A stretch of 32,000 bases of DNA from Candidatus Nitrosopumilus koreensis AR1 (GCF_000299365.1 NC_018655.1:1470001-1502000), one strand, 5' to 3'; positions 11,739 through 26,969 are shown, counted from the stretch's first letter. Translations and numbers: made by a program. The notes: generated by a model not told the origin, from the sequence alone.

Positions 11739-13004
11739 CTAAATTATAATTATTTTCCTTTCAACAAGATTTTCAATTATATTTAGAAATTGTTCATCAG
11801 AAATTTTTTCTTCATACCACCAACTTGCAGGAGTTTGTACCCATGCAGGGATTCTCCATTGTGATTCAGAAACTATCTCACGTGTTGGAACAGATACAAT
11901 CTGTTTCTTAAGGAGGAAATCAATTCCTTCAAGAAATTCTGAATCAGAAATTTGTTCAGTTGCCCACCAATCTGCATTTTGTTTTATCCATGCAGGAATT
12001 GTAGGTAGTTCTGGAGGCAATCCTTCATCAAAACCAGAAATTTTCAAAATACCTTGAGATTGCGGTCCAACTGTAAATGCAACATGCCAGAACCCCATCT
12101 CATCTATGCTTTGAATAAATTCTATAGGCTCATCATCAATAGTAATAGAAAATTTTTCATTTCCTGAAATTGGAGCAAATTCAAAATTAGCATATGTATC
12201 TAATGGATAACTATTGTAGCCTTTGATAGTCATTGTTGTACCAGACTCATCAAATTTTGCAGCTGAATACCATGCTCCTGAGTCATATCTAAAATCAAAA
12301 TCACCATCATTTTTCTTTACAGTTACAGGAATTACAGTAGTATCAACTGGCGCAAAGCAAGAGTAGAAACGTACTGGTTCAGAGACAGATGGATCTGGAT
12401 AGATAGTAAAATCTAGAATCTGTCCTGGTTCAATTTTTTCAATTGGCTCAATATTGTGGGCAACATCTAAGATAAACTTCTCATAACCATGAACAATAGC
12501 ATACACTTTTGGATTGTATACTGTATGATTTCCAACATTCTCAATTTTTCCAGTAACATGTCCATCATCATGAGTGATCAAAGTTTTGTCATAGATAATT
12601 TGAATTGGAATACGATCTTTTTCAGTTTTAGTGTAACTTAGTTCTGCATCTAACAATTCAGGATTTTCACCACGTATATCGGGGAATTTTATTTTAAAAG
12701 GAATGTCAGTCATTGCAGGGATTGGCACATGAACAAGTTCTTTAGTAATTTTTGTTGCATCATCAATAACAGAAATTGTGATGGTTGGAATCAACGCAAA
12801 ATCATTTTGGTTTTTGACATTTCCAACAACAGTAAAAATGCCTTGATAATCATAGTAACCAGTGTATTCATTTGTTGGAATAAAGACATCAGCAAATGCT
12901 ATCTGCGGAACAAGAAATATGGATAAAATGATTCCAAATAGAAGAGTTTTGTATGATATCTTAGAATGAATTGATGATATCTTCAAATCACGCGTTGTTT
13001 TCAT
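11739..13004 (-). CDS. Secreted protein of unknown function with two C-terminal Trp-rich repeats
   Basis: Signal peptide ...LVPQIAFA|DVF. There are two internal beta-sandwich-like segments (FTVVGNVKNQNDF / VTGKIENVGNHTVYN). The C-terminal tandem repeat IPAW(I/V)...WW...(I)SD..F is shared with the next two genes. The tracked TTG start at 13025 is replaced by the ATG at 13004. Confidence 0.6.
   Translation of the reverse strand: MKTTRDLKISSIHSKISYKTLLFGIILSIFLVPQIAFADVFIPTNEYTGYYDYQGIFTVVGNVKNQNDFALIPTITISVIDDATKITKELVHVPIPAMTDIPFKIKFPDIRGENPELLDAELSYTKTEKDRIPIQIIYDKTLITHDDGHVTGKIENVGNHTVYNPKVYAIVHGYEKFILDVAHNIEPIEKIEPGQILDFTIYPDPSVSEPVRFYSCFAPVDTTVIPVTVKKNDGDFDFRYDSGAWYSAAKFDESGTTMTIKGYNSYPLDTYANFEFAPISGNEKFSITIDDEPIEFIQSIDEMGFWHVAFTVGPQSQGILKISGFDEGLPPELPTIPAWIKQNADWWATEQISDSEFLEGIDFLLKKQIVSVPTREIVSESQWRIPAWVQTPASWWYEEKISDEQFLNIIENLVERKIIII
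11742..11999 (-). repeat. Coding tandem repeat (2 copies, about 49-aa period): IPAWIKQNADWWATEQISDSEFLEGIDFLLKKQIV / IPAWVQTPASWWYEEKISDEQFLNIIENLVERKII
   Basis: Direct comparison of the translated C-terminus. Confidence 0.85.
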
Positions 13005-13088
13005 AGTGCTTTTAGGCCTAAACAAAGTAGTGTAATTTTCTTAATTATTCATTTAAACCGACTGGTTCGATTATCAAATCAGTGTAGA

Positions 13089-14738
13089 TTAAACACGAAT
13101 TATTCCTTTTTGAATCAAAAATTCCAATCCTTGTACGAATGTTTGATTGTCTATATGTCCTGCAGCCCACCATGCAGCATTGTTTCTAATCCAAGATGGT
13201 ATCTCTTGAGACTCTGAAGTTTCCTGTTGAGTTGGAGGAAGTATAATAATTTGATTTTTGATTAGATATTCTATTCCTTGTACGAATGTACTATCATCAA
13301 TTTGTTCTTCAGACCACCACAATGCATTGTTTCTAATCCAATCAGGAATTATAATTTCTTTTTGTGGTGTAACTCTATCAATAACAATCGGGATAGTTGT
13401 TTGTGCAAGCTCATTATTATTAAGATTATTAAAATTAAGATGCGCAATTCCTGTTACATCTTGTGGAATAAAAAATTCAACTACATTGTGTTCTTCTCTT
13501 GAATCAGTACTAATTCCATTTTGTTCAAAAATTATTCTGTTATTTTGTGTAATAGAAAATTCATAATTGGTTGAAACAGGTTTGTTTTTTAAGAAGACAT
13601 CAGTTACATCAAAAATTATTTTTGCATTTGAATTAGATTTTAGATATTCTGGTTCCCAAGATACAAGAATTCTGAATTGCCCATTTTCAGTAACTGAGCT
13701 CAAATGAGGGTAATCCTTATCAGGTTTAATTACAAAATTCATCCCATTTGCATTTGAGCCATTTTCAAGAATGTTGAGTAATTCTTTTTGATAAATAATA
13801 AAATGGACTATACGGCCGTCAGAAAAAAAATCATCTATTGTGATTACATCTTCAGAAAGTTGCACTCCATTAATGAACATAGTAAATCCAGATACAAGCA
13901 AGTCACCAAATGTTTTTGGAATAACTAGTTCTTCATGTACAACAGATGTTTGATTGATGTTTGTATAACTCCAGTCAAAAGGCATTGAATATCTAATCTC
14001 TTTTGAATCAGAATCATATTCAAAGTCAGAAATCTCATCATAATAAGTAACGACATGAATATTCTGATCTCCAAAGTTAGGATCAACAAAATCATGTCTA
14101 GAGGTCTGAGCAATAGAAATTCCTGCGTTAAAAACTAGTGGTTCTTCAAGTGTATTGGAATAACTGTCAACAGTAAGTACACTAATATCAAATTTGTATA
14201 ATCCTCCTTCGCTGAGCTTTGGACCCTTTACATGAATCATCCTACTATCCAATCCTAATAACGAACCAAAGATACTGCTTTCACTTTCTTCCTCTACAAT
14301 AATAGAATCTGTTTCTTCTGAAACAAAGTTAAAGACTAAAAATCCATTATCAGCTTTGAATTCTTGTTCAAAAAGAAACTGTTCTCCCTTTTCAGATGTT
14401 ATATGAAAAATAACGTCACGTAAAGTAATTTTAGAATCAAAATCAATTAACGAAATCGATATTTGTTGTCCATCAATTGCTTCAGGATCACCTTTTGATG
14501 AAGAAACTTCCAGAGCCACTTGCTTTCCGTTCAATTCGACTGGAGGAAATGTTTCGCTTCCTACCCCATGACCATGAACGTCAGTAAATGAAACTAAAAA
14601 CAAAGAAGAGATTAGAAGTAATACAAATAACGATGGAGATTTCAATCTATGTCCACTTGTTTGGATCTTTTTTACGAATTTCTTTTCCATCAATTGTAAC
14701 TGAATCTTTTTCTTCAAAGATAGTATGCCATTTGCCAT
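13089..14738 (-). CDS. Secreted HG(L/V)G-N-terminus family protein, paralogue 1, with two C-terminal Trp-rich repeats
   Basis: Homologous to 14886-16589 and 24873-26240 through shared blocks GGLYKF, YYDEISDFEYD, MPFDW, VVHEELVIPKTF, INGVQL and IVHFIIY. The signal peptide ends FTDVHG|HGVG. The start is ambiguous: ATG at 14738 or 14690, or TTG at 14645, which gives a paralogue-like 25-aa signal peptide. Confidence 0.7.
   Translation of the reverse strand: MANGILSLKKKIQLQLMEKKFVKKIQTSGHRLKSPSLFVLLLISSLFLVSFTDVHGHGVGSETFPPVELNGKQVALEVSSSKGDPEAIDGQQISISLIDFDSKITLRDVIFHITSEKGEQFLFEQEFKADNGFLVFNFVSEETDSIIVEEESESSIFGSLLGLDSRMIHVKGPKLSEGGLYKFDISVLTVDSYSNTLEEPLVFNAGISIAQTSRHDFVDPNFGDQNIHVVTYYDEISDFEYDSDSKEIRYSMPFDWSYTNINQTSVVHEELVIPKTFGDLLVSGFTMFINGVQLSEDVITIDDFFSDGRIVHFIIYQKELLNILENGSNANGMNFVIKPDKDYPHLSSVTENGQFRILVSWEPEYLKSNSNAKIIFDVTDVFLKNKPVSTNYEFSITQNNRIIFEQNGISTDSREEHNVVEFFIPQDVTGIAHLNFNNLNNNELAQTTIPIVIDRVTPQKEIIIPDWIRNNALWWSEEQIDDSTFVQGIEYLIKNQIIILPPTQQETSESQEIPSWIRNNAAWWAAGHIDNQTFVQGLEFLIQKGIIRV
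13092..13349 (-). repeat. Coding tandem repeat (2 copies): IPDWIRNNALWWSEEQIDDSTFVQGIEYLIKNQII / IPSWIRNNAAWWAAGHIDNQTFVQGLEFLIQKGII
   Basis: Direct comparison of the translated C-terminus. Confidence 0.85.
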
Positions 14739-14853
14739 TGCTTGGGAAAATTTTATTCATCTCTTCAACTTTATCGTTAGTTGGGGGTTTGTTCATCAAT
14801 GCACCCCACTTCATGTTAGGAATTTTTGGCATGATATCATTGATGTCTTTCAT
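14647..14853 (-). CDS. Candidate small protein (68 aa), unknown function
   Basis: ATG-initiated ORF filling the gap between two paralogue genes. A TATA-like TTTAAATA lies about 22-29 nt upstream of its ATG. Its TAG stop is followed 1 nt later by an in-frame TTG for the downstream paralogue. There is no recognisable domain, and it competes with the long-start model of 13089-14738. Confidence 0.4.
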   Translation of the reverse strand: MKDINDIMPKIPNMKWGALMNKPPTNDKVEEMNKIFPSNGKWHTIFEEKDSVTIDGKEIRKKDPNKWT

Positions 14854-14874
14854 ATACTATCACTTGACTGAATT

Positions 14875-14882
14875 TATTTAAA
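14875..14882 (-). promoter_or_regulatory. TATA-box-like element (TTTAAATA on the minus strand)
   Basis: It sits about 26 nt upstream of the ATG at 14853, which is the spacing expected for a leaderless archaeal transcript. This is sequence-only evidence in AT-rich DNA. Confidence 0.3.
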
Positions 14883-14885
14883 AAC

Positions 14886-16589
14886 TTATGATTGAATTCT
14901 CATGATTCCTTCTTTAATCAAGAATTGAATTCCTTGAATGAAAGAGCTATCATCAATTGCACCTTCTGCCCACCAACCTGCATTGTTTTTAATCCATGCT
15001 GGGATTTCATTAGAACCAGAACCTTGGCCTTGTGATGTTGGTGGAATCTTTAGAATATCTTCTTTAATCAAATATTGAATGCCCTGAACAAAGGAATTGT
15101 CATCTATTTGTCCATCAGCCCACCAACCTGCATTGTTTTTAATCCATGCAGGTATTGCAGCAGGAGGTTGTACATCAGGAGTTTTTCCTACACTAGGACC
15201 AATCTCAATTATTCCTGAACCAATTCCTGCATAAGTTTCATCATATGCTAATCCAGTACCTAAAGCTCTTACATCAATTCTGTAAGTTCCTTGAGATGGA
15301 ATGTAGATTTTTTGAACATCAATTCCTTCAGAAGCTATAATTCCAGGCATATCAGGATTATCTCCCAAGAATGTCTCTAAGATCTTATCATTTTCATCAA
15401 TAAAAGAAACAACATATCTCATATCACGAATGAGATCTCTGTTTTCATCAAAGAATGCTATTTCAAAAGGTACATCATCTCCGGCACCGTAATTTCCATC
15501 CCATGAAATATTCACAGTTGTTGGAACCTGTTCATAGTTTGTGGTGTCAACAAGATAGAATTCAGTAGAACTCTTTGAAACTTCATCAAGTGGCACTAGT
15601 TTCAAGTTCATTTCTGTGTTATCATAGTGACTTGGTCCCAATGTTTCATTGATTTTCTGCAATTCAGCTTTGGTAATTAAAAAGTGAACAATATTGGTAT
15701 CATCATATGAATAAGGATCATTTAGTAATGCACGTTGGTCAATTTCTACACCATTGACATATCCCTTGAACTGTTTACCTTCAGCGTAAGGTGCAAAGGT
15801 TTTTGGAACTCTAACTTCTTCATGAACTACTTGAACTAAATTAACATAATCAGGATTCCAATCAAATGGCATATGAAATGAAATTGAGTTATCTGATTGA
15901 TCAAACTTGAAATTATCTACATGATCATAGTATGTTTTTATAACAACTGGCACTTCAGCGTTTGCGGTTTGTATCAGAAAGTTTTGATCTTGTGCAACAC
16001 TAACATAAGTTTCATAGCTTAGAAGATTTGCTAATACAGTTCTAGGACTAGTTGCACCTTCAATATCAACTCTAATCTTATACAATCCACCATTTACAAA
16101 AATAGGACCAGTCATTGATGGTCGTGCACAAATATCTAAGTTATCATCAGTACATTCTGCGCCTTGAACAAATAATGCACCGGGAGCACTAACATGTTCA
16201 GAACCACCATAAACAGTACATTCTTCAGGTTTAGGTTCATCACAGTTAGGATTTGGCTTAATTTTTACATCCAGTCTTCCATCCAAATCATAGAAAAGAT
16301 TTCTAGCTAAAAGTTCGCCACTTTGCCATACTTCTATTCTATATGTTACTTTATCGAGATTTGTGTCAGTTAAGGTATCAAAGAATCGTACTTGCATGTT
16401 AGCTGAATCAACTTCACCTACTGTAATATCTGATGGACTCAATTGTGTACGTACTGTTACTTCCATATCACCAAAACTCAATGCTGGAGCTTGATCACCT
16501 CCTAATCCATGTCCAAACACATCAGGAACTAATGTCGGTATTGTGAAAATCCCAACAATTACAATTAGTAATGCAAACTTATGATACAA
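14886..16589 (-). CDS. Secreted HG(L/V)G-N-terminus family protein, paralogue 2, with two C-terminal Trp-rich repeats
   Basis: 567 aa. TTG start, with no in-frame ATG before the signal peptide. The signal peptide ends PDVFG|HGLG. Family blocks: [47 protein letters not shown]. Confidence 0.75.
14889..15155 (-). repeat. Coding tandem repeat (2 copies, exact 150-nt period): [35 protein letters not shown] / [35 protein letters not shown]
   Basis: It contains a perfect 32-nt DNA repeat (14968-14999 = 15118-15149, gcccaccaacctgcattgtttttaatccatgc). Confidence 0.95.
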
Positions 16590-16701
16590 TAATAAAACTA
16601 TGAGAAATCCATATTTAAAGATGGCACAGTATTTCTATGCGTGATAATTTTTTTTAAAAAATCAGAGTACGATTTTTATTTATCGATTTAGGACAAATAG
16701 T

Positions 16702-17526
16702 ATGAAAGTTATATTTGCGTTATTACTAATACCATTTTTGTTAACAGTTCCAGCTTTTGCTGAAACCCAAACATTACCAACTGAAAAGAATACTTTGGAT
16801 GTAAAATTAACATATGATGAAATTGAACCAGGTGTTCAAACAAAGATTGGTATAGATTTTATCAATCCACAAACTCAAAAAATTCAAGAACATATTGATT
16901 ATACGGTAGCTGTATCAAAAGATGGTGAAAATGTATTTGGACCAATTCCACTTACACACACATCTGTGGGATCTGTAAAAATTCCAATAGAGTTTAATCT
17001 TGGAGAAGGAATATACTCGATGGACTTTGAGATTGAAGGTATTTTATTTCAACCAATTCCAAAAGAATCGGTATCTTTTGACATTCTAGTAGGTGAAGCC
17101 AATGCACAACCAATTACACCAATAGAGAATGAAAAACTAGATGGTGAAAATGGAGGATGTCTTATTGCAACAGCAACATTTGGCTCTGAGATGGCACCAC
17201 AAGTACAACAACTAAGAGAACTTAGAGACAATACAATTCTAAAAACAAATTCAGGAATGGCATTCATGACAGTTTTTAATCAGTTCTATTATTCATTCTC
17301 ACCTGCTGTTGCAGACTTTGAAAGAGAGCAACCATTTTTCAAAGAAGTTATGAAAGTAACACTTACTCCAATGTTATCATCATTATCATTACTAAATCAT
17401 GTAGATATTGATTCAGAACAAGAAATGCTGGGATACGGTATCTCTGTAGTACTACTGAATCTTGGAATGTATATTGGAATTCCGGCATTTGGAATTCTAA
17501 GATTGTACCAGTTTAGAAAAAACTAG
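16702..17526 (+). CDS. Secreted protein: beta-sandwich module plus a GGCLIATATFGSE...LRELRDN C-terminal module with a hydrophobic tail
   Basis: 274 aa with signal peptide ...TVPAFA|ETQ. The N-terminal module resembles the C-terminal module of the paralogue family. The Cys-containing box CLIATATFGSEMAPQVQQLRELRDNTIL is followed by FNQFYYSFSPAVADF and a terminal TM segment. Confidence 0.55.
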   Translation: MKVIFALLLIPFLLTVPAFAETQTLPTEKNTLDVKLTYDEIEPGVQTKIGIDFINPQTQKIQEHIDYTVAVSKDGENVFGPIPLTHTSVGSVKIPIEFNLGEGIYSMDFEIEGILFQPIPKESVSFDILVGEANAQPITPIENEKLDGENGGCLIATATFGSEMAPQVQQLRELRDNTILKTNSGMAFMTVFNQFYYSFSPAVADFEREQPFFKEVMKVTLTPMLSSLSLLNHVDIDSEQEMLGYGISVVLLNLGMYIGIPAFGILRLYQFRKN

Positions 17527-17589
17527 TGTGTATCCATTTTCTGGAAATTCTAGTGAGGTTTTTATGTATCTGAGCAAGTAGTTTGATTA

Positions 17590-18453
17590 ATGAAGACTAT
17601 AGCAATTTGCTCTTTCTTCGTACTATTTGCTATGGTAGCTGGATTAGTTGCAACAACACCAGCTGCTTTTGCAGATCATTCAGAAGTCACAATCTCACCA
17701 GCATCAGGTTCTGGTGCACCAGGTTGTGAAGAAACCGCAGATGGATGTTACATTCCAAATACTGCAACAGTTGATGTTGGCGGTGTTGTTATCATGTCAA
17801 ACACTGACACTGCAGCACACACATTCACATCAGGAACTCCAGATGATGGGCCAGATGGTGTATTTGACACCAGTCTATTAATGGCTGGAAATTCATTTGA
17901 GTGGAGTCCAACAGTTGCAGGTGAACAGCCATATTTCTGTATGGTACATCCTTGGATGCAAGGCTTGATCATAGTACAAGAAGCAGGAGCTGAAGAAGCT
18001 GATGATCATGGTGATGAGATGATGATGCCAACAGGTGCCGCTGCAGCAACAGGAATGTTGTCTGACGGTACAAAAGTTTCTGTCTGGACTACAACACCTA
18101 CTAAAGGTGAGATGATGGAAATTTCTGTTCAATTTGAAGGTGCAGAACATGTCAATCACGATATGAAAGTCACACAAAATGGTAATACAGTACTAGATGA
18201 TAAGGGCGCACATCATCATGATGGAAAAGGAGTACATATGACAAAAGCTCTTGGTTCATCTGATCCAGTAAACATCACAATTACCTTCCAAGGTTATGGT
18301 GTTGATGATCCTAAAACAGGACCAATTGGTGAAAAAGTAGTATTCTCAAACGTTGTTCCAGAATTTGGTACAATTGCAATGATGATACTAGCTGTTGCAA
18401 TTATAAGCATTGTTGCAGTTACTGCAAAATCTAGAGTCATTCCAAGATTTTAG
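17590..18453 (+). CDS. Blue (type 1) copper protein (cupredoxin) with Met/His-rich linker, second His-rich domain and PEFG-CTERM tail
   Basis: Signal peptide ...PAAFA|DHSE. Type 1 Cu ligand pattern: AAHTFTSG ... YFCMVHPWMQG (C-x2-H-x2-M, amicyanin-like loop). Linker: EEADDHGDEMMMP. Second domain contains HVNHDMKV and GAHHHDGKGVHM. C-terminus: PEFGTIAMMILAVAIISIVAVTAKSR. Confidence 0.85.
   Translation: MKTIAICSFFVLFAMVAGLVATTPAAFADHSEVTISPASGSGAPGCEETADGCYIPNTATVDVGGVVIMSNTDTAAHTFTSGTPDDGPDGVFDTSLLMAGNSFEWSPTVAGEQPYFCMVHPWMQGLIIVQEAGAEEADDHGDEMMMPTGAAAATGMLSDGTKVSVWTTTPTKGEMMEISVQFEGAEHVNHDMKVTQNGNTVLDDKGAHHHDGKGVHMTKALGSSDPVNITITFQGYGVDDPKTGPIGEKVVFSNVVPEFGTIAMMILAVAIISIVAVTAKSRVIPRF
18358..18450 (+). 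other. PEFG-CTERM-type sorting/anchor segment of the cupredoxin
   Basis: PEFG motif, hydrophobic helix and a basic cluster (KSR) at the extreme C-terminus. Confidence 0.7.
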
Positions 18454-18466
18454 GAATCCTCTTTTT

Positions 18467-19105
18467 CTATTTTCTTTTTATTAAAGCAATTATCGCCAAG
18501 ATTATAGCTGCTCCGGCAATTGATAATCCAAATATTGCAAAGTCATAAGCTGTTCCACCATCAGATGTTACTTCAGTTTCACCTGACTTTAGTTTAGAAA
18601 CATCTTGTTGTAATGATGAAATTGCATTCTTTAGAGCAGCAACATCAGCAGCACCTTCACTGCTAGTAGGTGGGAAATCTAACACTGCGGTAGGCTCTAC
18701 ATCCTCAATAGGGATTTTAATATCAATAGGAGTTCCACGAATTTCTCCTTTTAGTTCCACCATGTATGTTCCTGTTTTAGTTGGAATTATAGGTGAAAAA
18801 TAATATCCAGGTTTAGGATCAGAATTTATATCAATTTTCTTTGTTGCACCACCAAACATCACAGTTGCATCAACATCTTTGAAAGCACTTGTGATTCCTG
18901 TAAATGTACCTTCTTTTTCTCCACGTTCAATCACTTTTAGAATCAGATCATTTCTAATGCCTACAACTGGAGGCTCGATCCCCCATCCTGCTTCAATTTC
19001 GTATGGTTCGACATGAACAGTTGTATGTGCAAATGATGGTGCAATCATTCCAATTGAAAACAATAAACCAATAATACCAAAAACTAGTATTTTCATTGTT
19101 ATCAT
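18467..19105 (-). CDS. Membrane-anchored secreted protein, YcnI/DUF1775-like (tentative), predicted N-terminal His
   Basis: Signal peptide ...IAPSFA|HTTVHVEPYEIEAGW, comparable to the H-x-x-V-x-V-x-P start of mature YcnI-type proteins. It has a beta-rich body and a C-terminal TM helix plus KRK. The tracked TTG start at 19153 is replaced by the ATG at 19105, with another ATG at 19096. It is divergent from the CopC-CopD gene. Confidence 0.45.
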   Translation of the reverse strand: MITMKILVFGIIGLLFSIGMIAPSFAHTTVHVEPYEIEAGWGIEPPVVGIRNDLILKVIERGEKEGTFTGITSAFKDVDATVMFGGATKKIDINSDPKPGYYFSPIIPTKTGTYMVELKGEIRGTPIDIKIPIEDVEPTAVLDFPPTSSEGAADVAALKNAISSLQQDVSKLKSGETEVTSDGGTAYDFAIFGLSIAGAAIILAIIALIKRK

Positions 19106-19198
19106 TTCATAATTACACGTTATTATCTTTACGTGAATTGGCACAAATATCAAATTTGTGAAAACTGTTTAAATTATCAAAGATGATCCTAAGAGTAA

Positions 19199-21982
19199 AT
19201 GCAAAAATTTCTCATCACGTTATTGGTAATATCATTTATTTCAATTCCATTTGCAACAGCACACCCATTTACTGAAGAGACAATTCCAAGTTTGACGTCT
19301 AATGCCCCATCTGGAACAACTGAAGTGATTGTATATTTTTCAGAACCAGTTGATATTAACTTTAGTGAACTCAAAGTATTTGATACAAATGGAGATCAAA
19401 TAGACAATAAAGATACAGATTACTATGAAGGGGAATTATCTCTAATAATTACAACACCACCATTAGAAGATGGAGTTTACACTGTATCAACCAAAGTTCT
19501 CTCTAAAGTAGATGGCCATCTAGTTCCAGATGCATTCTTGTTTGCAGTAGGAGATGCTGTTATTGATCCCTCTTTACATAATGTAGAACGACCATCAGAG
19601 ACAGTATTTCTGCCTGAAGCTGGTGCCAGATTACCAGGATTGGTAGGTCAAACGATTGTTTTAGGTGCAGTGATTTCATCACTCATAATTTGGGGTACAC
19701 AAAATAAACAATCGATAAAAGATGAACTAGAAAAGATTCAATCTTTTCATCACGGAAAATTTATGTCAATTACAGGAATTGGACTTGTTTTAGTTTTCAT
19801 TTCAGATATTTTGATGATTGCAGTTCAAACAGTTAGATTAGAAGCATCGCCGATTGATGCAATCCAAACTGATTTTGGCAATATTTGGTTAATCAGAATG
19901 ACCATAACAATAGTATTACTAGGCATATGGTTTGGGTTAGACAGAAAAAAAGTACTATCAAGGAAAAATCAAATTGCAATGTTAGTAGTATCGCTTGTAT
20001 TAATTGCCACAACAAGTCTAATTGGACATGGTGCAGCTAGTGGAGAAACACCTGCATTAGTATTAGATTACATTCACAATTTGGTTGCAGCAGTTTGGAT
20101 AGGTGGAATTTTCTATTTTGTTTTCACATTGCTTCCAACATTTTCACAATTAAAAGAATCATCTAGAGAAAAGATGAGCCTATTAATGATTCCAAGATTC
20201 TCAATTGCATTTATCATTGCAGTAGGAATCGTTATAATTACAGGACCAACATTGATGTGGTTCCTAGAAAGTGATATTGGATTAATTACAGAATCAATTT
20301 ACGGTCAATTAATTATTCTAAAAATTGCCATTGCAGTAGTAATAGTTGCATTTGGAGGATTTTTCCAGTTCAAAGTACAAAAAAATGCAGAAAGAAATTT
20401 TTCATCAGGAAAAATTTTTGTACATAAAAAACTAAAGAGATCACTCAAAGTTGATGCCGTATTGGGAATAATACTTCTTGGAGTGGTAGCATTACTAACT
20501 AACGGAACATTACCTGCAGGAGAAATCCAAAAAGTTGATGCTCAAGAAATTATCTATGGTTTCAAAACGATAGAATTTACAGAGAACGCAAAATTTGATA
20601 TCGATATTTCGCCATTTTCAAGCGGACCAAACACAATCCTAATCAAGGTTAGTGACTTTGAAGGAAATCCACTCTATGATTCAGATCAACTCAAAGTCAA
20701 AATATCAAATCCATCAAAGAATATCGCACCAATTGAAGTGCCAATGGAGATAATCAAACAAGAAGAGAACAAACCAATAGAATTCCAAGGAGAATTAACA
20801 TTTGGATTTTCAGGAGAATGGCTAGTAGAAGTTGAAGCACAAAGAACCGATAATGCAAGCGAGTCAAAGCTTTTGAATTTACTAGTAAAGCCAAGACTGA
20901 CAGACATACAAACTCAGATTATCGAATATGAACTACCAGAGGACGCAAAACCGCTCTTTCCATTGTATGATGGGCATGATTCGATTTGGGTAAGTGATGC
21001 ATCAGCGCCACGAGTATGGCAATTTTCACTGGATTCACAAGAGTTTACACCATATTCATTTGATGGTGTAGTTACAACATTCCTTACGCAGGACAAACAA
21101 GATAGAATTTGGTTTGTGGATCCACCAAGGAATCAGATTGGATTCATAGATCTTCAAACAAAACAGATCACAACAAAATCTATTCCAAAACTTGATCCTA
21201 CAATCTCAGACAATACACCATTGTTCATAAAATCAGACTTTGATGGAAACATATGGATTACAATAATCAACAAAGACAGAATTGTAAAATACATACCAGG
21301 AAATGACGAATTTGAAGAAATTGTTTTGTCAGGAAAAGATAACTTACCGTTTGCATTAGCTCTTGATAATGATGGAAAAGTATGGTTTTCAGCAACAGGT
21401 ACAGGAAAAATAGGATACGTTGATCCAAAAGACAATAAATTGATTGAATTTACAAAAGAGCCTCCACTACAAGGACCAGAGGCATTGCTTTTTGATGATG
21501 ATGGTAATCTCTGGATTGCAGAACATACAGGCTTGGCAATCACCAAATTCAATCCAATTTTAGAAACATTTGAGAGAGTATCAGTCCCAAATGAAGAGGC
21601 ACTACCATTTGGAATGACATTTGACAGATACGGAAATGTTTGGTTTGCACAGCACACGATAGATAGCATAGGTGCATATGATCCAGATAACAATAATTTG
21701 ATTGAGGTTCCTATTCCATCAGAAACATCATTTGTGCAGTTTATGACATCAGATGGAGACAATAACGTATGGTTTGTTGAACAACAGACAAACAAAATTG
21801 GAACAGTAAAGATTACTGAGATTCCCGGTATTACATCGCAAGTTCAATCATCTGCCGAATTTGAATTAAAGTATACAGAACTTGCATCACCACTAATTGC
21901 GTTAGGAATCATTGCAACGTCTTTGTTTTATGTAAAAAGTATTCAGGATAAAAGAAGATTAAATTCACTAATCAGGTCTTAG
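19199..21982 (+). CDS. CopC-CopD fusion protein extended by a YtkA/FixH-like beta-sandwich, a six- to seven-bladed beta-propeller and a terminal TM helix
   Basis: 927 aa. Signal peptide ...IPFATA|HPFTEE. CopC module (about nt 19262-19573) with His1 and VDGH. Polytopic CopD module (about 19616-20520, including IGHGAASGE). Beta-sandwich at about 20546-20900. Repeated blades at about 20920-21820 (DRIWFVD, DGNIWIT, DGKVWFS, DGNLWIAE, YGNVWFAQ, DNNVWFVE), of the Vgb/SMP-30 type. Terminal TM helix plus KRR. Confidence 0.8.
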   Translation: MQKFLITLLVISFISIPFATAHPFTEETIPSLTSNAPSGTTEVIVYFSEPVDINFSELKVFDTNGDQIDNKDTDYYEGELSLIITTPPLEDGVYTVSTKVLSKVDGHLVPDAFLFAVGDAVIDPSLHNVERPSETVFLPEAGARLPGLVGQTIVLGAVISSLIIWGTQNKQSIKDELEKIQSFHHGKFMSITGIGLVLVFISDILMIAVQTVRLEASPIDAIQTDFGNIWLIRMTITIVLLGIWFGLDRKKVLSRKNQIAMLVVSLVLIATTSLIGHGAASGETPALVLDYIHNLVAAVWIGGIFYFVFTLLPTFSQLKESSREKMSLLMIPRFSIAFIIAVGIVIITGPTLMWFLESDIGLITESIYGQLIILKIAIAVVIVAFGGFFQFKVQKNAERNFSSGKIFVHKKLKRSLKVDAVLGIILLGVVALLTNGTLPAGEIQKVDAQEIIYGFKTIEFTENAKFDIDISPFSSGPNTILIKVSDFEGNPLYDSDQLKVKISNPSKNIAPIEVPMEIIKQEENKPIEFQGELTFGFSGEWLVEVEAQRTDNASESKLLNLLVKPRLTDIQTQIIEYELPEDAKPLFPLYDGHDSIWVSDASAPRVWQFSLDSQEFTPYSFDGVVTTFLTQDKQDRIWFVDPPRNQIGFIDLQTKQITTKSIPKLDPTISDNTPLFIKSDFDGNIWITIINKDRIVKYIPGNDEFEEIVLSGKDNLPFALALDNDGKVWFSATGTGKIGYVDPKDNKLIEFTKEPPLQGPEALLFDDDGNLWIAEHTGLAITKFNPILETFERVSVPNEEALPFGMTFDRYGNVWFAQHTIDSIGAYDPDNNNLIEVPIPSETSFVQFMTSDGDNNVWFVEQQTNKIGTVKITEIPGITSQVQSSAEFELKYTELASPLIALGIIATSLFYVKSIQDKRRLNSLIRS

Positions 21983-22790
21983 AAAGCAATCCAGATGATT
22001 TAATTCCCATAGTACCAGCTAGCAATCCAATTGCAATCAAGACAATTGTTCCTGCAGGAGTAATATCAAAGATATAAGAAACCAAAATTCCCGTTACAAC
22101 TGAAAAAATTGAAAAACTCATAGAAATAATTGCAGTTTGTTTGAAACCTTTACCATACATTATTGCTGAAACATTCGGAATAACAAACAATGCAGAAATC
22201 AACAGTACCCCAACAAGCTGAATCGAGGTGACAACTGTAAGGCCTGCCATAAACACTATTAGATAATTTATCTTCTCTACAGGGATTCCACTGACTTTGG
22301 CTTGCTCTTCATTAAATGTAGAATAAAGAATCTGTCTAAACAAGACCAATATCACAATCAGAATTGCGCCAGTAAGTGCAAGTATCAAAACAGTATCATC
22401 AACACTGACTAGTAGAATGCTACCAAAGAGGAAACTAAAGATATCAATTGTAAACCCTCCTGAAAACCCAATAATTACAAGCCCAACTGCTATGCCGGAG
22501 GACAAAAGTACTGCAATGGATGCATCTCCAGATATGTTGAATCTGTCTTTTACTCTAGTAATGATCAATGCACTAATTATTGATACACCATAAGCAGTCC
22601 ATAATGGATAAACTCCTACTAAAAGACCCAAAGCTATTCCACCAAAAGACGAATGTGCTATTGCATCACCAAACAATGAATACCGTCTAAGAACCAAAAA
22701 CAATCCAACAACTGAACAAAGAATTGCAATGGCAATCCCAGAGATTAATGCTCTGTGCATAAAACTGTAAGTTAGAATTTCAAAAGACAT
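21972..22790 (-). CDS. Metal ABC transporter permease (ABC-3/ZnuB-TroCD family)
   Basis: 272 aa, polytopic, in an operon with the ATPase and the cluster-A-I-type binding protein. The 3' end overlaps the convergent CopCD gene by 11 nt. Confidence 0.8.
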   Translation of the reverse strand: MSFEILTYSFMHRALISGIAIAILCSVVGLFLVLRRYSLFGDAIAHSSFGGIALGLLVGVYPLWTAYGVSIISALIITRVKDRFNISGDASIAVLLSSGIAVGLVIIGFSGGFTIDIFSFLFGSILLVSVDDTVLILALTGAILIVILVLFRQILYSTFNEEQAKVSGIPVEKINYLIVFMAGLTVVTSIQLVGVLLISALFVIPNVSAIMYGKGFKQTAIISMSFSIFSVVTGILVSYIFDITPAGTIVLIAIGLLAGTMGIKSSGLLSKT

Positions 22791-22792
22791 GA

Positions 22793-23515
22793 CTAATGAT
22801 GATGCATATGCTCCTGCATCGATGCTTCAGAGTATTGTTTGACAAGATCATCATCAGAAAAGAATTTTTCAGATTCTCCATGAAAGAACAAAGTTCTATT
22901 TAGACAAGCAACATGATTTGCTAATTTGTTTACAGCATCCAAGTCATGAGAAGACCAGATAATCGTAATCTTTTGTTTAGAGTTTAGTTCACGTAAAATA
23001 CTGTAGAACAGTTCTATGCTTTGCTGATCAATTCCAGTTACTGGTTCATCTAAAATCAAAAGTTTAGGATTATTCACCAAGGCTTTTGCAATAAAAACTC
23101 GTTGTAGTTGTCCTCCAGATAGTTCTCCTATTCTTCTATTTTGTAGTTCATGTATCCATAATTGCTGTAAAATTTCATTGATCTTGTTTTCATCAGATTC
23201 TTTTCGTAATCCCATCCTTACAACATCACCTACAGTTGCAGGAAAATTTTTTTCAAAAATTGGTTTTTGTGGAACATATCCAATTTCTTTAAGATAATTT
23301 CTTGATTGTCTAATGTCTTCTCCAAAAAACTTGATTTGGCCTTTGTATGTTGTATTGAGTCCAAGCATGCAATCAAAGAGAGTTGACTTTCCAGCACCAT
23401 TAGGCCCAATTATGCCTAGAAAATCACCCTGATTAACCACAAAACTCACATCATCAAGAGCTTTTACATCAGGATATCGAACAGTGAGATTGTTAATTTC
23501 AACTGCCTTCAACAT
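22793..23515 (-). CDS. Metal ABC transporter ATP-binding protein (ZnuC/TroB-like) with C-terminal His-rich tail
   Basis: Walker A GPNGAGKST, signature LSGGQLQR, Walker B LLILDEP. The C-terminus ends MQEHMHHH. Confidence 0.85.
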   Translation of the reverse strand: MLKAVEINNLTVRYPDVKALDDVSFVVNQGDFLGIIGPNGAGKSTLFDCMLGLNTTYKGQIKFFGEDIRQSRNYLKEIGYVPQKPIFEKNFPATVGDVVRMGLRKESDENKINEILQQLWIHELQNRRIGELSGGQLQRVFIAKALVNNPKLLILDEPVTGIDQQSIELFYSILRELNSKQKITIIWSSHDLDAVNKLANHVACLNRTLFFHGESEKFFSDDDLVKQYSEASMQEHMHHH

Positions 23516-24417
23516 AGTGCCTCCTTTAGGTTCTCAAGATTTTGGTTCATTTTTTCAATGTAGGTTCCATCAGATGCAATCTCTAATGAGGATAAAACCA
23601 AAACTTTGCCGTCAATTTCATGCGCAATGGTTTGAGAAGTTCTAGCATCAACTGTTTCTTTGCTAAAAATTATTTTGATATTAAGTTCTTTTGCAGTTGT
23701 AATTACACTCTCTAGCTTTTTTGCAGTGGCTTCTCCATGTGAATCAGTCGAAGAGATGATTGTGTGTTGATGTAAGCCATACTCATCAGCAAAATATGAA
23801 AAGGCATCATGAAATGCAATAAAATCAGAATTACAATTTGACAAATCATTTCGAATTTGTGAGTCCAATAAGTTGAGTTCTTCAATGTATGATTCAGCAT
23901 TGGATTGATAAAATTGCACGTTTTGAGGATCATGTTTTGAAAATGCATCTGCAATGTTTTGAACTTGAATTTTTGCATATACAGGATTTAACCATATATG
24001 CGGATCTCCTGATTCATGATCATATTCATCTTCTTGAGATTTTTTTGCTAAAATTCCATCGCTTGTATCAATTATAGTTCCCTGATAGTTATTATCATCA
24101 AGTTTATCGACCCAATTTTCAAAACCAATTCCATTAATAATTATAAGATCAGATGCTTGCATTTTTTGCACATCTTTAATTGTTGGTTCCCAATCATGAG
24201 GTTCAACTCCAACTGGAACAAGTAATGTGACATCAACTTTGTCTTGTCCTACATTTTGTGCAAATTCATGCAACGGATTAAATGATGATATGACTTGCAG
24301 TTTTGAATTTTCTGGAGAAGTAGATTCGGTGTTTGGATTTGTTCCATAAACTGCAAGTGAGCTTAATGGAATTACTACAGATATTACAATTATTGCAAGT
24401 TTGGTTTGTATATTCAC
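23509..24417 (-). CDS. Metal ABC transporter substrate-binding protein (ZnuA/TroA family)
   Basis: 302 aa with a GTG start and an N-terminal anchor/signal. Ligand contexts: VEPHDWEPT, GDPHIWLNP, AFHDAFSYF, KETVDAR. This is a three-His plus Asp pattern, of the Zn/TroA type rather than the Mn type with Glu. There is a short acidic/His loop, EDEYDHESGDPH. Confidence 0.8.
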   Translation of the reverse strand: MNIQTKLAIIVISVVIPLSSLAVYGTNPNTESTSPENSKLQVISSFNPLHEFAQNVGQDKVDVTLLVPVGVEPHDWEPTIKDVQKMQASDLIIINGIGFENWVDKLDDNNYQGTIIDTSDGILAKKSQEDEYDHESGDPHIWLNPVYAKIQVQNIADAFSKHDPQNVQFYQSNAESYIEELNLLDSQIRNDLSNCNSDFIAFHDAFSYFADEYGLHQHTIISSTDSHGEATAKKLESVITTAKELNIKIIFSKETVDARTSQTIAHEIDGKVLVLSSLEIASDGTYIEKMNQNLENLKEALC

Positions 24418-24458
24418 GCAACCGTTAATTAAAATTTTATTAATAAATCTATAAAATC

Positions 24459-24471
24459 TTAATAATATTAA
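24459..24471. promoter_or_regulatory. Perfect 6-1-6 inverted repeat TTAATA-A-TATTAA in the divergent transporter/NikR-like intergenic region (candidate operator)
   Basis: Read directly from the sequence. The region is extremely AT-rich, so a chance palindrome is plausible. Confidence 0.25.
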
Positions 24472-24508
24472 TTGCTAAACTTATAAGATAATTAATAACA
24501 TTAGGCAT

Positions 24509-24892
24509 ATGCCAATAGTATCAATCTCACTAAATGATGAGATTCTATCTGAGTTAGACAAATTGCAATCAAGCATGGGTTTCTCAGGAAGATCTGAGGC
24601 AATCAGGGCAGGAATCAGGGCATTTGTTTCAGAAGAAAAACAAAAGTCAGATTTATCAGGTAATATTCATGCAATTCTTTTGGTGGTACACAATGATGAG
24701 TTTGATCATGTTGTGTCAGGGATAACTCATAACTTTGAAGATCTAATAACTACACATCTTCACAGTAAAATTGACAAAGAAAAATGCATGGAACTTTTTG
24801 TAATTGATGGAGATGCAGAAAAGGTTTCTACAATGACAAAAGACTTTCAGATAAACAAAAACATGGATACTGTTAGACTTGTTGCAATCTAA
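24509..24892 (+). CDS. nikR: NikR-family metal-responsive ribbon-helix-helix regulator
   Basis: 127 aa. N-terminal RHH (VSISLNDEILSELDKL...GRSEAIRAGIRAFV). C-terminal metal-binding-domain pattern VVHNDEFDH ... THLHSKIDKEKCMELF (H-x-H...C), similar to NikR high-affinity site residues. Confidence 0.75.
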   Translation: MPIVSISLNDEILSELDKLQSSMGFSGRSEAIRAGIRAFVSEEKQKSDLSGNIHAILLVVHNDEFDHVVSGITHNFEDLITTHLHSKIDKEKCMELFVIDGDAEKVSTMTKDFQINKNMDTVRLVAI

Positions 24893-26240
24893 ATGAATTT
24901 TTTCTGGTAATAAAAATTACAGATGCAATAGAAATTATCAATACAAATAATGCAATTGTGCCAAATTCAGGTGCAACTACCATACCAAATTCAGTTTCTT
25001 GTCCAGTATTTCGTATATTTTCAAATTTAATTATTGTAGGGCCTGTTTGATCTTCTGCAAATGTATATTTTTCAAATTCTCCACCAACTTGGGCTACACC
25101 AGACACGCGATGTATCTCCTCTCCATTTTGAATGATTACAAATGTATAATCAGAATTTCTCAATGGATCATTTGTTCTTCCGTCTCGGATAGTAAAAATA
25201 AAATTTGTTTCAACACCAGGTTCAAGATCCGCAGGATCCCATGACAGATTTACTTTAAAGTCCTCACTTTTTGTGTATGCCTCTAATGGAAAAGCAGTTT
25301 TATCGCTAGTCAATAAAGTAAATACAATATTATCAGGCAATTGTTCATCTGATTTTTTCATTTCATTTTTTATATATCGGATGTGATCCTGCAGCAAAAC
25401 AAAATGCACTATTCTTTCATGATCTTCTGTATAATCATCAATTGATACTGAAGATTTGAATAATTCAATTCCATTTACATACCCAGAATAGCTAGGGGAC
25501 AAAAGTTCAACAAAATCTTTTGGGAAATGAACTTCTACATGAATTACTGAAATGTGAGACATCTTACTTTCTTTCCAGTCAAATGGCATCTCAAATCTTA
25601 CTTGTTTTGCACTAGGATCATACTGGAAATTGTCAATTTTATCAAAATATGATTTCATTCTAAATTGAACGTCATTGCCCTCAAGATCTTTTTCCATAAA
25701 AGACGATGTGCTAACTACACTCAAATCTGCATTGTAGATGCCAGAATCCTCTATAATGTTGGTAGGCTCATCAATTGTTCTAACTTCAATCTCAAAATTA
25801 TACAGACCACCTGAAGAAAATAATGGTCCAGTTATCTCAATTGGATCTGACACAGTTCCATGCCAAGCCCCAAGCAGAGAGTCTTGCTCACCATGTATTG
25901 TTATCTCACCTTCATTTGATGGATTCACCTTGATTGACAAAACTCCATTTTCTGCAAAAAAGTAATTTCTAAAAATCATTTCATTGCTATGAAACAATCC
26001 AATGAGAAATGTCACGTTTTTTGCAGGTTCGTCTGTTTCATTATCAGTTGCAGTTATTGTGATTTGTTCTTGACCACCTTCAAATGTCAATGGCATCTCT
26101 ACTGAAATTGAAATGTCTTTTCCAGCAACATTTACTGAAGATATGGTATCAATTCCCAACCCATGTCCGTAAACACTGCTAACAGGAAATAGCAAGCATG
26201 CAGATAATGCCAATATTGAAAATTTTGTAAATGACATCAT
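24873..26240 (-). CDS. Secreted HG(L/V)G-N-terminus family protein, paralogue 3, with PEFG-CTERM tail instead of Trp-rich repeats
   Basis: The signal peptide ends VSSVYG|HGLG. Family blocks: GGLYNF, YFDKIDNFQYD, MPFDW, VIHVEVHFPKDF, VNGIEL, IVHFVLL. C-terminus: PEFGTIALFVLIISIASVIFITRKN. The tracked TTG at 26243 is followed immediately by two ATGs, so I use 26240. Confidence 0.75.
   Translation of the reverse strand: MMSFTKFSILALSACLLFPVSSVYGHGLGIDTISSVNVAGKDISISVEMPLTFEGGQEQITITATDNETDEPAKNVTFLIGLFHSNEMIFRNYFFAENGVLSIKVNPSNEGEITIHGEQDSLLGAWHGTVSDPIEITGPLFSSGGLYNFEIEVRTIDEPTNIIEDSGIYNADLSVVSTSSFMEKDLEGNDVQFRMKSYFDKIDNFQYDPSAKQVRFEMPFDWKESKMSHISVIHVEVHFPKDFVELLSPSYSGYVNGIELFKSSVSIDDYTEDHERIVHFVLLQDHIRYIKNEMKKSDEQLPDNIVFTLLTSDKTAFPLEAYTKSEDFKVNLSWDPADLEPGVETNFIFTIRDGRTNDPLRNSDYTFVIIQNGEEIHRVSGVAQVGGEFEKYTFAEDQTGPTIIKFENIRNTGQETEFGMVVAPEFGTIALFVLIISIASVIFITRKNSFRLQQV
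24876..24971 (-). other. PEFG-CTERM-type sorting/anchor segment of paralogue 3
   Basis: PEFG motif, hydrophobic helix and a basic cluster (TRKN). Confidence 0.7.
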
Positions 26241-26258
26241 CAAATTTTTATCCCAGGG

Positions 26259-26969
26259 TTATTTTATTGTCAGCAATTCTTCAACCTTTTGAATTAATTC
26301 ATCCATTGTGGTAGCCTCCAAAATTGGTTGCAATTCATGAGGGTCCTTTGCACCAAGTGCAGAAAGCGAATAGATGTAATCAATTGTTGGCGTATCAGTT
26401 GTAAGATAATACTGTTCTAAAACATGGTCTAGAGAATGTGGTTCAACTACTTGTGGTAATGCTTGTTGAATAATTTTCTTTTTCCACAAGTCTACAAGTT
26501 TTTCCCATTGCTCAAGGGATATACTCTCATCAATTTCTGGAATCATTTCAACTTCTGCTCTAATGTACATTTTTTCTTCAGTTCCAATCTTTTCATGCAT
26601 CTCAGAAATTTGCTGATGACCTTCAACAGAGAGTGGATCGTAGTTTTCAGGTTGTGGAATTGATGGGGGAATAATTTTTTTAATTTTAAATGAATTTCGT
26701 CCTAACGTTTCAATGTGAAGTTGCAGTCCATCCATTTCAACATCTTCACACTTTGTAATTTTGGCAATAGTACCTATCATTTGAGGCGAATTCCAGCCAT
26801 TAACTGAATTGCCTTCATCAATTAAACAAACGCCAAACTGGCCATCGCCTAACATGCAATCATCAACTAGTTGTTTGTAGCGAGGCTCAAATATTCTCAA
26901 AGGAAGTTCTTGTCTAGGAAACAAGACCAAATCTAGAGGAAAAATCGGAATAGTTTTTGTTTCTGTCAT
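26259..26969 (-). CDS. LON N-terminal (substrate-binding) domain protein
   Basis: 236 aa. IPIFPLDLVLFPRQELPLRIFEPRYKQLV is the characteristic start of the Lon N-terminal/PUA-like domain. There is no ATPase or protease domain. Confidence 0.75.
   Translation of the reverse strand: MTETKTIPIFPLDLVLFPRQELPLRIFEPRYKQLVDDCMLGDGQFGVCLIDEGNSVNGWNSPQMIGTIAKITKCEDVEMDGLQLHIETLGRNSFKIKKIIPPSIPQPENYDPLSVEGHQQISEMHEKIGTEEKMYIRAEVEMIPEIDESISLEQWEKLVDLWKKKIIQQALPQVVEPHSLDHVLEQYYLTTDTPTIDYIYSLSALGAKDPHELQPILEATTMDELIQKVEELLTIK

Follow-up and report, generated by a model that had tools for sequence, protein, structure and literature searches.

A free N-terminal histidine can hold Cu(II) and other 3d ions in a chelate formed by its amine and imidazole groups, as in CopC, YcnI, the lytic polysaccharide monooxygenases (LPMOs) and PmoB. 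Among the described systems, the ycnKJI operon of Bacillus subtilis, which serves copper acquisition, encodes YcnJ, a CopC-CopD-YtkA fusion, and YcnI, a DUF1775 protein with a monohistidine brace (PMC8424229). YcnI has a signal peptide, an N-terminal His, a C-terminal transmembrane (TM) helix and copCD as its neighbour (PMC8424229), and the exchange of Cu(II) between YcnI and YcnJ is the bacterial precedent for the transfer considered below (PMC8424229; PMC12362106). Metal chelation by an N-terminal His was shown for four new folds in a study of "signal-strapping" proteins (PMC12537917). CopC of the C0-1 type is fused to CopD in Gram-positive bacteria and in other Thaumarchaeota, according to Lawton et al. 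2016 as cited in PMC7785015. Here we analyze a 32,000-nucleotide stretch of the genome of Candidatus (Ca.) Nitrosopumilus koreensis AR1 (NC_018655.1:1470001-1502000; hereafter the window, with positions counted from its first letter), in which a rhomboid gene (10904-11662) and a LON-domain gene (26259-26969) enclose a block of twelve genes. Five of the secreted proteins encoded there are predicted to begin with His after removal of the signal peptide: three paralogues (parA, parB and parC) of what we call the [H/D]-G family, a small TM-anchored protein and the CopC module of a CopC-CopD (CopCD) fusion. We hold with moderate confidence that the segment is a conserved neighbourhood of the ammonia-oxidizing archaea (AOA) that captures and passes on copper, and possibly other divalent metals, between the membrane and the S-layer.

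As in ycnKJI and in pcuABCDE of Bradyrhizobium, a CopC-CopD fusion, its CopC part with His1 and a DxH motif, adjoins the gene of a small signal-peptide protein. Like YcnI, this protein has an invariant His at the start of its mature form and is anchored by a TM helix at the C-terminus. The gene of a metal regulator is close by, as in ycnKJI, and the CopCD protein of Ca. Nitrosocaldus shows a weak YtkA match; no YtkA domain was detected in CopCD of the window. However, DUF1775 could not be detected in the small archaeal protein, YcnK is lacking, the archaeal CopCD has a beta-propeller and a terminal TM helix in addition to the parts of YcnJ, and the archaeal cluster further includes a cupredoxin, a CFI-box protein and between one and three His1 members of the new family. 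The CopC module resembles the C0-1 type in having His1 and D84-x-H86 and no Met-rich Cu(I) site, and it differs from that type in the Vgb_lyase/SGL-type propeller added at the C-terminus of the fusion. The [H/D]-G proteins are like the signal-strapping families DUF4198, DUF6702 and Ang-1/Ang-2 (PMC12537917) in being secreted beta-sandwich proteins with a conserved His right after the signal peptide, a residue that is not universal in either case (79% in DUF4198 and 65% in DUF6702 (PMC12537917) versus 82% in the [H/D]-G family). The genes of both lie near metal transporters and NikR, and for the signal-strapping families metal capture and hand-over to permeases have been proposed. Yet the [H/D]-G proteins have no sequence relationship with those families, are archaeal and, by their named members, restricted to AOA, comprise three domains in 450-600 aa with archaeal sorting anchors, and have Asp in place of His in a soil clade. 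They also recall LPMOs and the CuB brace site of PmoB in their mature His-Gly start and in further conserved His and Glu residues within a beta-sandwich, but no homology was found by sequence or Foldseek and Asp can replace their His1. The concept itself is known from ycnKJI, pcuABCDE and the signal-strapping work of 2025; what the locus adds is a family without earlier description and, alongside it, a non-homologous stand-in for YcnI. Our literature search turned up no publication that treats this archaeal family or an island-level His1 pattern, and a search by Nmar locus tags found nothing.

Predicted N-terminal histidines in the rhomboid-LON block

The cleavage sites were inferred from three lines of evidence: 1) a crude scoring of the h-region and the -3/-1 positions, 2) the sequence context shared within the block and 3) the family logo described in the next section. 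The scorer worked on an ORF finder restricted to ATG starts, so parB, which starts with TTG, was missed; for CopCD, parC, parA and the small protein it selected the same site. All nine signal-peptide proteins of the block, whether they begin with His or not, use an [A/V/S]-[F/Y]-[A/G]↓ context. An earlier note on this DNA had predicted that five proteins of the island expose His as residue 1, and all five predicted sites follow the A/V-x-G/A rule and do leave His at +1, the His codons having been checked directly. Its placing of a His at position 2 of the mature cupredoxin also proved correct, the Asp-His codons being verified and A↓DH being kept in 73 of 77 species.

Conservation was followed in 80 Nitrosopumilus species loci, gathered by a single genome scan centred on the small His1 protein because the two family-wide alignments were too divergent for a locus pattern search. 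The cleavage context and the +1 residue are conserved over these 80 species-level genomes, with His at +1 in all orthologues of the small protein (80/80), of CopC (80/80) and of parB (55/55), in 41/42 of parA and in 47/48 of parC. The published frequency of His at +1 is 2.6% of the signal-peptide proteins in the SignalP 6 training set (PMC12537917). Against this background, which is that of a training set and not of this genome, five of nine gives p = 1.4e-6, and p = 5.7e-4 is still obtained when the paralogues are counted once (three of seven families). Among about 25 other signal-like ORFs of the examined loci, a small and noisy sample, none had His at +1. We conclude that the enrichment in N-terminal His is real and conserved in this block. 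The earlier note had further described nearly every gene between the rhomboid and LON genes as encoding a signal peptide, a TM anchor or a metal transporter or regulator; this can be said of all twelve, the products being secreted, membrane-bound, or metal transporters or regulators. The genes are as follows.

11739-13025, minus strand: p428, a secreted protein of 428 aa; cleavage AFA↓DVF, with Asp and not His at +1; two C-terminal repeats of ~35 aa, 'IPAWIKxNAxWW'
13089-14738, minus strand: parA, paralogue A of the [H/D]-G family, 549 aa; DVHG↓HGVG, His+1 codon 14568-14570; C-terminal double WW repeat
14886-16589, minus strand: parB, paralogue B, 567 aa, TTG start; DVFG↓HGLG, His+1 codon 16509-16511; C-terminal double WW repeat
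16702-17526, plus strand: CFI-box-CTERM protein, 274 aa; cleavage AFA↓ETQ; NF041770 at 74.4 bits
17590-18453, plus strand: candidate type-1 cupredoxin; second domain rich in His/Met; PEFG-CTERM anchor; mature Asp-His, codons 17674-17679
18467-19153, minus strand: small His1 protein, orthologue of Nmar_1651; SFA↓HTTV, His codon 19025-19027
19199-21982, plus strand: CopC-CopD-beta-propeller fusion, 927 aa; ATA↓HPFT, His codon 19262-19264
21972-22790, minus strand: ATP-binding cassette (ABC) metal permease of the ABC-3 (ZnuB/TroC) type; PF00950, 3e-62
22793-23515, minus strand: ABC ATPase of the same Znu/Tro-type transporter; PF00005, 1.3e-34
23509-24417, minus strand: ZnuA/TroA-type metal-binding protein with signal peptide; PF01297, 3e-79
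24509-24892, plus strand: NikR-type ribbon-helix-helix metal regulator, divergent from ZnuA; PF08753 at 44.7 bits, and RHH_1
24873-26243, minus strand: parC, paralogue C, 456 aa, NKOR_08960; SVYG↓HGLG, His codon 26163-26165; PEFG-CTERM anchor

The regulator passes the Pfam cut-offs for PF08753 (22) and, with 24.6 bits, for PF01402 (20.5), and it misses the NCBIfam NikR equivalog cut-offs, so nickel can be called only a possible specificity. Its gene and parC are convergent and overlap by 20 bp at their 3' ends (24873-24892). At the other end of parC, no more than 15 bp (26244-26258) separate its start from the LON-domain gene. This short gap, together with the adjoining of parC and LON-pyrB in rearranged genomes, suggests that parC is co-transcribed with the LON-pyrB genes rather than with the copper genes.

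The [H/D]-G family of the ammonia-oxidizing archaea

The three paralogues share about 30% identity, and parC is 100% identical to NKOR_08960 of Ca. N. koreensis AR1. No Pfam or NCBIfam domain other than sorting signals and no PDB relative was found for any of the three, and 92 family members gave no match to a Pfam family, the DUF4198, DUF6702, Ang-1 and Ang-2 profiles included. These four profiles were not among the Pfam matches of the window proteins either. An exhaustive search placed 536 clusters at 50% identity in the family. All of its named members belong to Nitrosopumilus/Nitrosopumilaceae, Nitrososphaeraceae or Ca. Nitrosocaldus, and they span all major AOA orders (Nitrosopumilales, Nitrososphaerales and Nitrosocaldales). 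In the logo of 91 diverse members a variable hydrophobic stretch ends and sharp conservation begins exactly at -3: this position is A/V in 91% and -1 is G/A/S in 100%, after which come His (82%) or Asp (15%) at +1, Gly at +2 (100%), Gly at +4 (60%) and Glu/Asp at +6 (97%). Such a logo reads as a textbook cleavage site of type-I signal peptidase and, downstream of it, a conserved start of the mature protein, [H/D]-G-Φ-G-x-[E/D]. The Asp1 variant is characteristic of the Nitrososphaeraceae, which have His1 members too. In mature parC numbering, the residues conserved throughout the family are [H/D]1, G2, [E/D]6, G120-L-Y, Y173, D175, M193-P-F-x-W, H209, E211, N231, D243 and H254, and they are the same in the His and Asp clades.

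The AlphaFold2 (AF2) model of parC consists of three beta-sandwich domains, with a predicted local distance difference test (pLDDT) score of 94.7. Its N-terminal block is ordered (mean pLDDT 84), and residue 3 takes part in a beta-bridge. H209-x-E211 occupies a single strand of the model and H254 a different one, a predicted arrangement of the pattern typical of a metal site. Some members are annotated as 'peptidase' (e.g. P0075 and P0247), which likely arose from their HEEVH string. We rejected a zincin metallopeptidase since the second His of HExxH is not conserved, being absent from parA and parB, and since the motif lies in a strand of the parC model (E207-215) and not in a helix.

Concerning the attachment of these proteins, the C-terminal tethers of 105 full-length representatives are PEFG-CTERM in 41, a tandem WW repeat in 32, a CFI-box in 4 and others in 28. 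In the block, PEFG-CTERM (TIGR04296, cut-off 25) was identified at the C-terminus of parC (40.4 bits) and of the cupredoxin (49.4 bits). The 'IPAWIKxNAxWW' repeats of p428 are common to parA and parB, and form a tandem repeat of ~35 residues, IPxWIKNNAxWWxxGxIxDxxFxxGIxxLIxxGI, at the C-terminal ends of p428 (11739-11960), parA (13089-13330) and parB (14886-15130). No Pfam model covers this repeat, and p428 as a whole gave no Pfam or NCBIfam match. As the 32 representatives carry the repeat instead of PEFG-CTERM, it is presumably an alternative surface-attachment module.

CopCD, its small neighbour and their linkage

The CopC module scores 40.4 bits with Pfam CopC (PF04234, cut-off 23.3) over residues 22-117 and does not reach the NCBIfam CopC equivalog cut-offs. 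Judged by its ligand set, His1 and D84-G-H86 in mature numbering, it is a canonical CopC with the single Cu(II) site typical of CopC fused to CopD. The CopD part (52.7 bits in Pfam) has 8 predicted TM helices, and after it come the propeller (Vgb_lyase, 157.9 bits) and a final TM helix that ends the fusion. The small His1 gene is transcribed divergently from CopCD. Its product (228 aa, the likely true start being the Met at 19096) has a signal peptide, the invariant His1, a domain of ~115 aa, a helical linker and a C-terminal TM helix at 201-219. The earlier note had called this gene YcnI-like, a label that failed every sequence test: no DUF1775 (PF07987) match was found in Pfam even at E<=10, no PDB match was found by phmmer or by profile hmmsearch, and hhalign against B. 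subtilis YcnI (sequence verified against 7ME6) gave probabilities of 0.9% and 0.3%. YcnI has a cupredoxin-like fold with a His/Glu/Trp monohistidine brace; the invariant Trp and Glu (G-W-x-x-E-P-P) of the small protein are not mappable onto YcnI. Based on the Pfam, PDB and hhalign results, membership in YcnI/DUF1775 was rejected. Only the architecture and the position beside CopCD match YcnI, and by this analogy the small protein is a candidate functional analogue of YcnI, not a detectable homologue.

The cupredoxin has the type-1 ligands H49, C89, H92 and M95 (mature numbering), with a Cupredoxin_1 score of 15.8 bits that is under the cut-off of 27. Its second domain is rich in His and Met (DHGDEMMMP, HVNHDM, AHHHDGKGVHM). 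From these motifs, the protein could combine an NH2-Xxx-His (GHK-like) Cu(II) site with a Cu(I)-type Met/His domain. The pair formed by the cupredoxin and CFI-box genes is tandemly duplicated in several Nitrosopumilus (loci L014, L033, L035, L051, L054, L061, L069 and L070). The N-terminal beta-sandwich of the CFI-box protein is homologous to a module of some [H/D]-G family members (phmmer against P0296, 7e-18).

Gene order is highly conserved in Nitrosopumilus, reading pyrI-pyrB-LON-parC-NikR-ZnuABC-CopCD and, from CopCD on, small protein-cupredoxin-CFIbox-parB-parA-p428-rhomboid-nitrilase. In Nitrosopumilus maritimus the block probably corresponds to Nmar_1646-1657, of which Nmar_1651 was confirmed. 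Synteny of the block had been put forward in the earlier note as a check of its reading. The order is indeed conserved in the genus, but it is not diagnostic, because the flanking nitrilase, pyrB and pyrI genes are equally syntenic, and we rejected genus-level synteny as functional evidence. In rearranged loci CopCD, the small protein and the cupredoxin were never separated. The Znu/NikR module is separable, being missing in two loci (L029 and L080). A distant high-GC genome of the Nitrosopumilaceae (L087) keeps the same gene order, and its ZnuA-type binding protein (11919-14219) has 766 aa versus 302 aa in the window, a difference that points to a large insertion or a fusion. A 386-kb contig labelled 'Inquilinaceae bacterium' (L036), which is probably mis-binned or chimeric, also contains the archaeal block of ZnuABC, CopCD and the small protein, at 75% identity.

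The decisive evidence of linkage is that of Ca. Nitrosocaldus (L088), where general synteny is lost and the paralogue family, the small His1 protein and CopCD are still clustered. In this genome CopCD (YA↓HPVL) is followed 66 bp on, in the same strand, by a family member (YS↓HGLG), and then by a 182-aa protein, the small His1 orthologue (VYA↓HTNI), which is 33% identical at E 6e-36, a protein homologous to the N-domain of the CFI-box protein, another member of the family (LG↓HGLH) and a small YA↓HQLF protein. The cluster ends with CtaA, a cupredoxin fusion, COX1 and COX2, and it has no Znu or NikR. Since five of its seven secreted proteins begin with His at the predicted sites, the island-level pattern recurs here independently. 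The CFI-box N-domain of the window matches a PEFP-anchored protein of this cluster (12854-13387; 8.5e-20). The YA↓HQLF protein (14919-15422) is 167 aa long, ends with a TM helix and gives a weak Ig-like (Big_1) signal; the window has no homologue of it.

In the Nitrososphaeraceae the family members are dispersed, and in four of six locus types a gene related to metals is at most two genes away: CorA; ArsR-ZIP together with a pair of cupredoxins; a multicopper oxidase; and a YHS protein with ArsR. Asp1 members adjoin CorA and ZIP. One of these arrangements (L082/L083) reads ArsR, Asp1 family member, ZIP permease and cupredoxin, followed by an M4 peptidase and an emfourin inhibitor.

Proposed metal capture and the alternatives

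From the sequence features, their conservation and the gene linkage we infer a chain of events in which the cleavage, the binding of metal, the metal bound and the direction of transfer are all putative. Signal-peptidase cleavage would leave His1 with a free amine and an imidazole that would hold a metal ion in a chelate, in the manner of CopC, YcnI, LPMOs and the signal-strapping families, and in the paralogues the chelate could be helped by the Glu/Asp at +6 and/or by the H-x-E and His of the middle domain. The three paralogues, tethered to the surface by PEFG-CTERM or WW-repeat anchors, would act as outer proteins of metal capture and hand-over, and the small TM-anchored protein would play the role of YcnI beside a YcnJ-like CopCD, exchanging Cu(II) with its CopC domain. 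Metal captured in the pseudo-periplasm by the tethered [H/D]-G proteins and by the small protein would then be handed to the CopC domain of CopCD for import or, alternatively, be passed directly to extracytoplasmic cuproproteins such as cupredoxins, the oxidase and ammonia monooxygenase (AMO). That all family members are surface-tethered was counted in favour of this explanation. In Nitrososphaera viennensis, the copC/D region is a cluster of 25 genes, of which 15, including genes for exported proteins without a known function, are upregulated when Cu is limiting (PMC7785015). A search for the copper-limitation promoter motif of that species gave one match with 3 mismatches, outside the block and no more than expected by chance. 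On inspection by eye, the intergenic regions of the block showed no evident common motif, no formal motif search being made of them.

The earlier note had regarded the segment as a dedicated surface locus for Cu (and Zn/Ni). The enrichment in His1, the surface, membrane or metal-related nature of all its products and the Nitrosocaldus linkage uphold much of this description, but for the paralogues copper is only a presumed metal, read from sequence context. Copper is most likely the metal of the family members that adjoin CopCD; a different metal is possible for parC, which adjoins NikR/Znu, and for the Asp1 subclade of soil. Our caution has several grounds: N-terminal-His proteins can prefer Ni, as DUF4198 does (PMC12537917), parC is located beside NikR/Znu and soil members beside CorA/ZIP, and the soil subclade replaces His1 with Asp, a change found in ~15% of the family representatives. 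The Ni preference and the Asp replacement weigh against the capture of copper that we propose, and so do the following observations: 1) in Nitrosopumilus maritimus CopC/D is reported to decrease, not increase, when Cu is limiting (PMC7785015), 2) parC remains with LON-pyrB, and not with the copper genes, in four rearranged loci (L022, L034, L072 and L074), 3) two Nitrososphaeraceae loci have no metal gene nearby, 4) Foldseek with the paralogue model returned only generic Ig/macroglobulin strings, with template modelling (TM) scores of ~0.2, and 5) the small protein had to be rejected as a YcnI and its AF2 model is poor (pLDDT 36.4) because the alignment is shallow.

One alternative is that the paralogue family is a general system of divalent-metal capture ('anglerase' or sequesterase), not specific for copper, in which different paralogues would serve different transporters. 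The Asp1 members of soil would then deliver to CorA or ZIP, and parC would supply the ABC system of the NikR/Znu type with Ni, Zn or Mn. We regard this as unlikely, though deserving of serious weight. It agrees with the location of parC next to NikR-ZnuABC both in the window and in the distant Nitrosopumilaceae genome, and with that of the Asp1 members; DUF4198 is a His1 protein with NikR neighbours in which Ni is preferred over Cu, and DUF6702 binds Ni tighter than Co or Cu (PMC12537917). However, both Nitrosocaldus members are found inside a CopCD/COX cluster that lacks Znu and NikR, parA and parB flank the cupredoxin, other soil members lie beside a multicopper oxidase, cupredoxins or a YHS protein, and parC and NikR, being convergent, have no common promoter.

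A somewhat lower probability is given to a role of the cluster in the assembly of extracytoplasmic copper enzymes (CuA/CuB of complex IV, AMO and cupredoxins) instead of cytoplasmic uptake, the His1 proteins being chaperones comparable to PCuAC/Sco/PcuABCDE. The block of Nitrosopumilus does not include the oxidase genes, and CopD is a membrane permease-type module, neither of which fits such a role. It keeps its share of probability because the Nitrosocaldus cluster abuts CtaA, COX1, COX2 and the cupredoxin fusion, and because CopC/D is co-regulated with complex IV in N. viennensis and N. maritimus (PMC7785015); YcnI, moreover, is homologous to PcuD of the pcuABCDE copper-acquisition operon (PMC8424229).

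It is improbable that the paralogues are structural or adhesive surface proteins, built of tandem Ig-like domains and sorting anchors, in which the N-terminal His would be kept for folding or processing and the 'island' would be an inherited gene order. The generic macroglobulin/Ig strings that are their sole fold matches, their PEFG-CTERM, CFI-box or WW-repeat anchors and the equal synteny of the housekeeping flanks would all be in keeping with this, as would the rise of surface PEFG-CTERM proteins with S-layer proteins under H2O2 stress (PMC6593220), although the responsive proteins of that study could not be mapped to this locus. Yet a near-invariant [H/D]1-G2 and [E/D]6 placed exactly at the mature end, with the conserved H-x-E and His, is hard to explain in this way, the linkage to CopCD survives the split between Nitrosocaldus and Nitrosopumilus, across which general synteny is gone, and metal transporters or regulators recur beside the soil members.

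Very improbable, finally, is a catalytic mononuclear copper enzyme with a histidine-brace-type site (His1 with H-x-E/His) acting at the surface on a small molecule or polymer, and equally so its version as a new class of AOA-only surface enzyme, and not a passive carrier, with a part in extracytoplasmic nitrogen-oxide or reactive-oxygen chemistry and a site that would recall the monooxygenase CuB, for although the HG start and an H-x-[E] pair that is conserved on a strand look similar to sites of the brace type (PmoB CuB, LPMO), and although the family is AOA-wide with named members in AOA only, PDB sequence and Foldseek searches found no LPMO or PmoB homology, the change of His1 to Asp in a whole subclade would be unusual for a brace enzyme, and the new His1 families characterized so far showed no significant activity (PMC12537917).

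The capture and passing on of copper, and possibly of other metals, would concern organisms that are among the most abundant microbes of ocean and soil and whose energy metabolism depends almost entirely on copper proteins. How copper is acquired and allotted by AOA where it is very scarce is still a matter of debate, and the locus offers concrete players: a YcnJ-like CopCD, an unrelated protein apparently in the role of YcnI and the large, AOA-wide [H/D]-G family, with its predicted mature end of His-Gly or, in many lineages of soil, Asp-Gly. If this family does bind metal by its N-terminus, it would represent a new fold for such chemistry and its first archaeal example, and its members would serve to mark stress by copper or other metals among AOA in the environment. 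The switch from His in marine to Asp in soil members would then be a natural experiment in metal selectivity.

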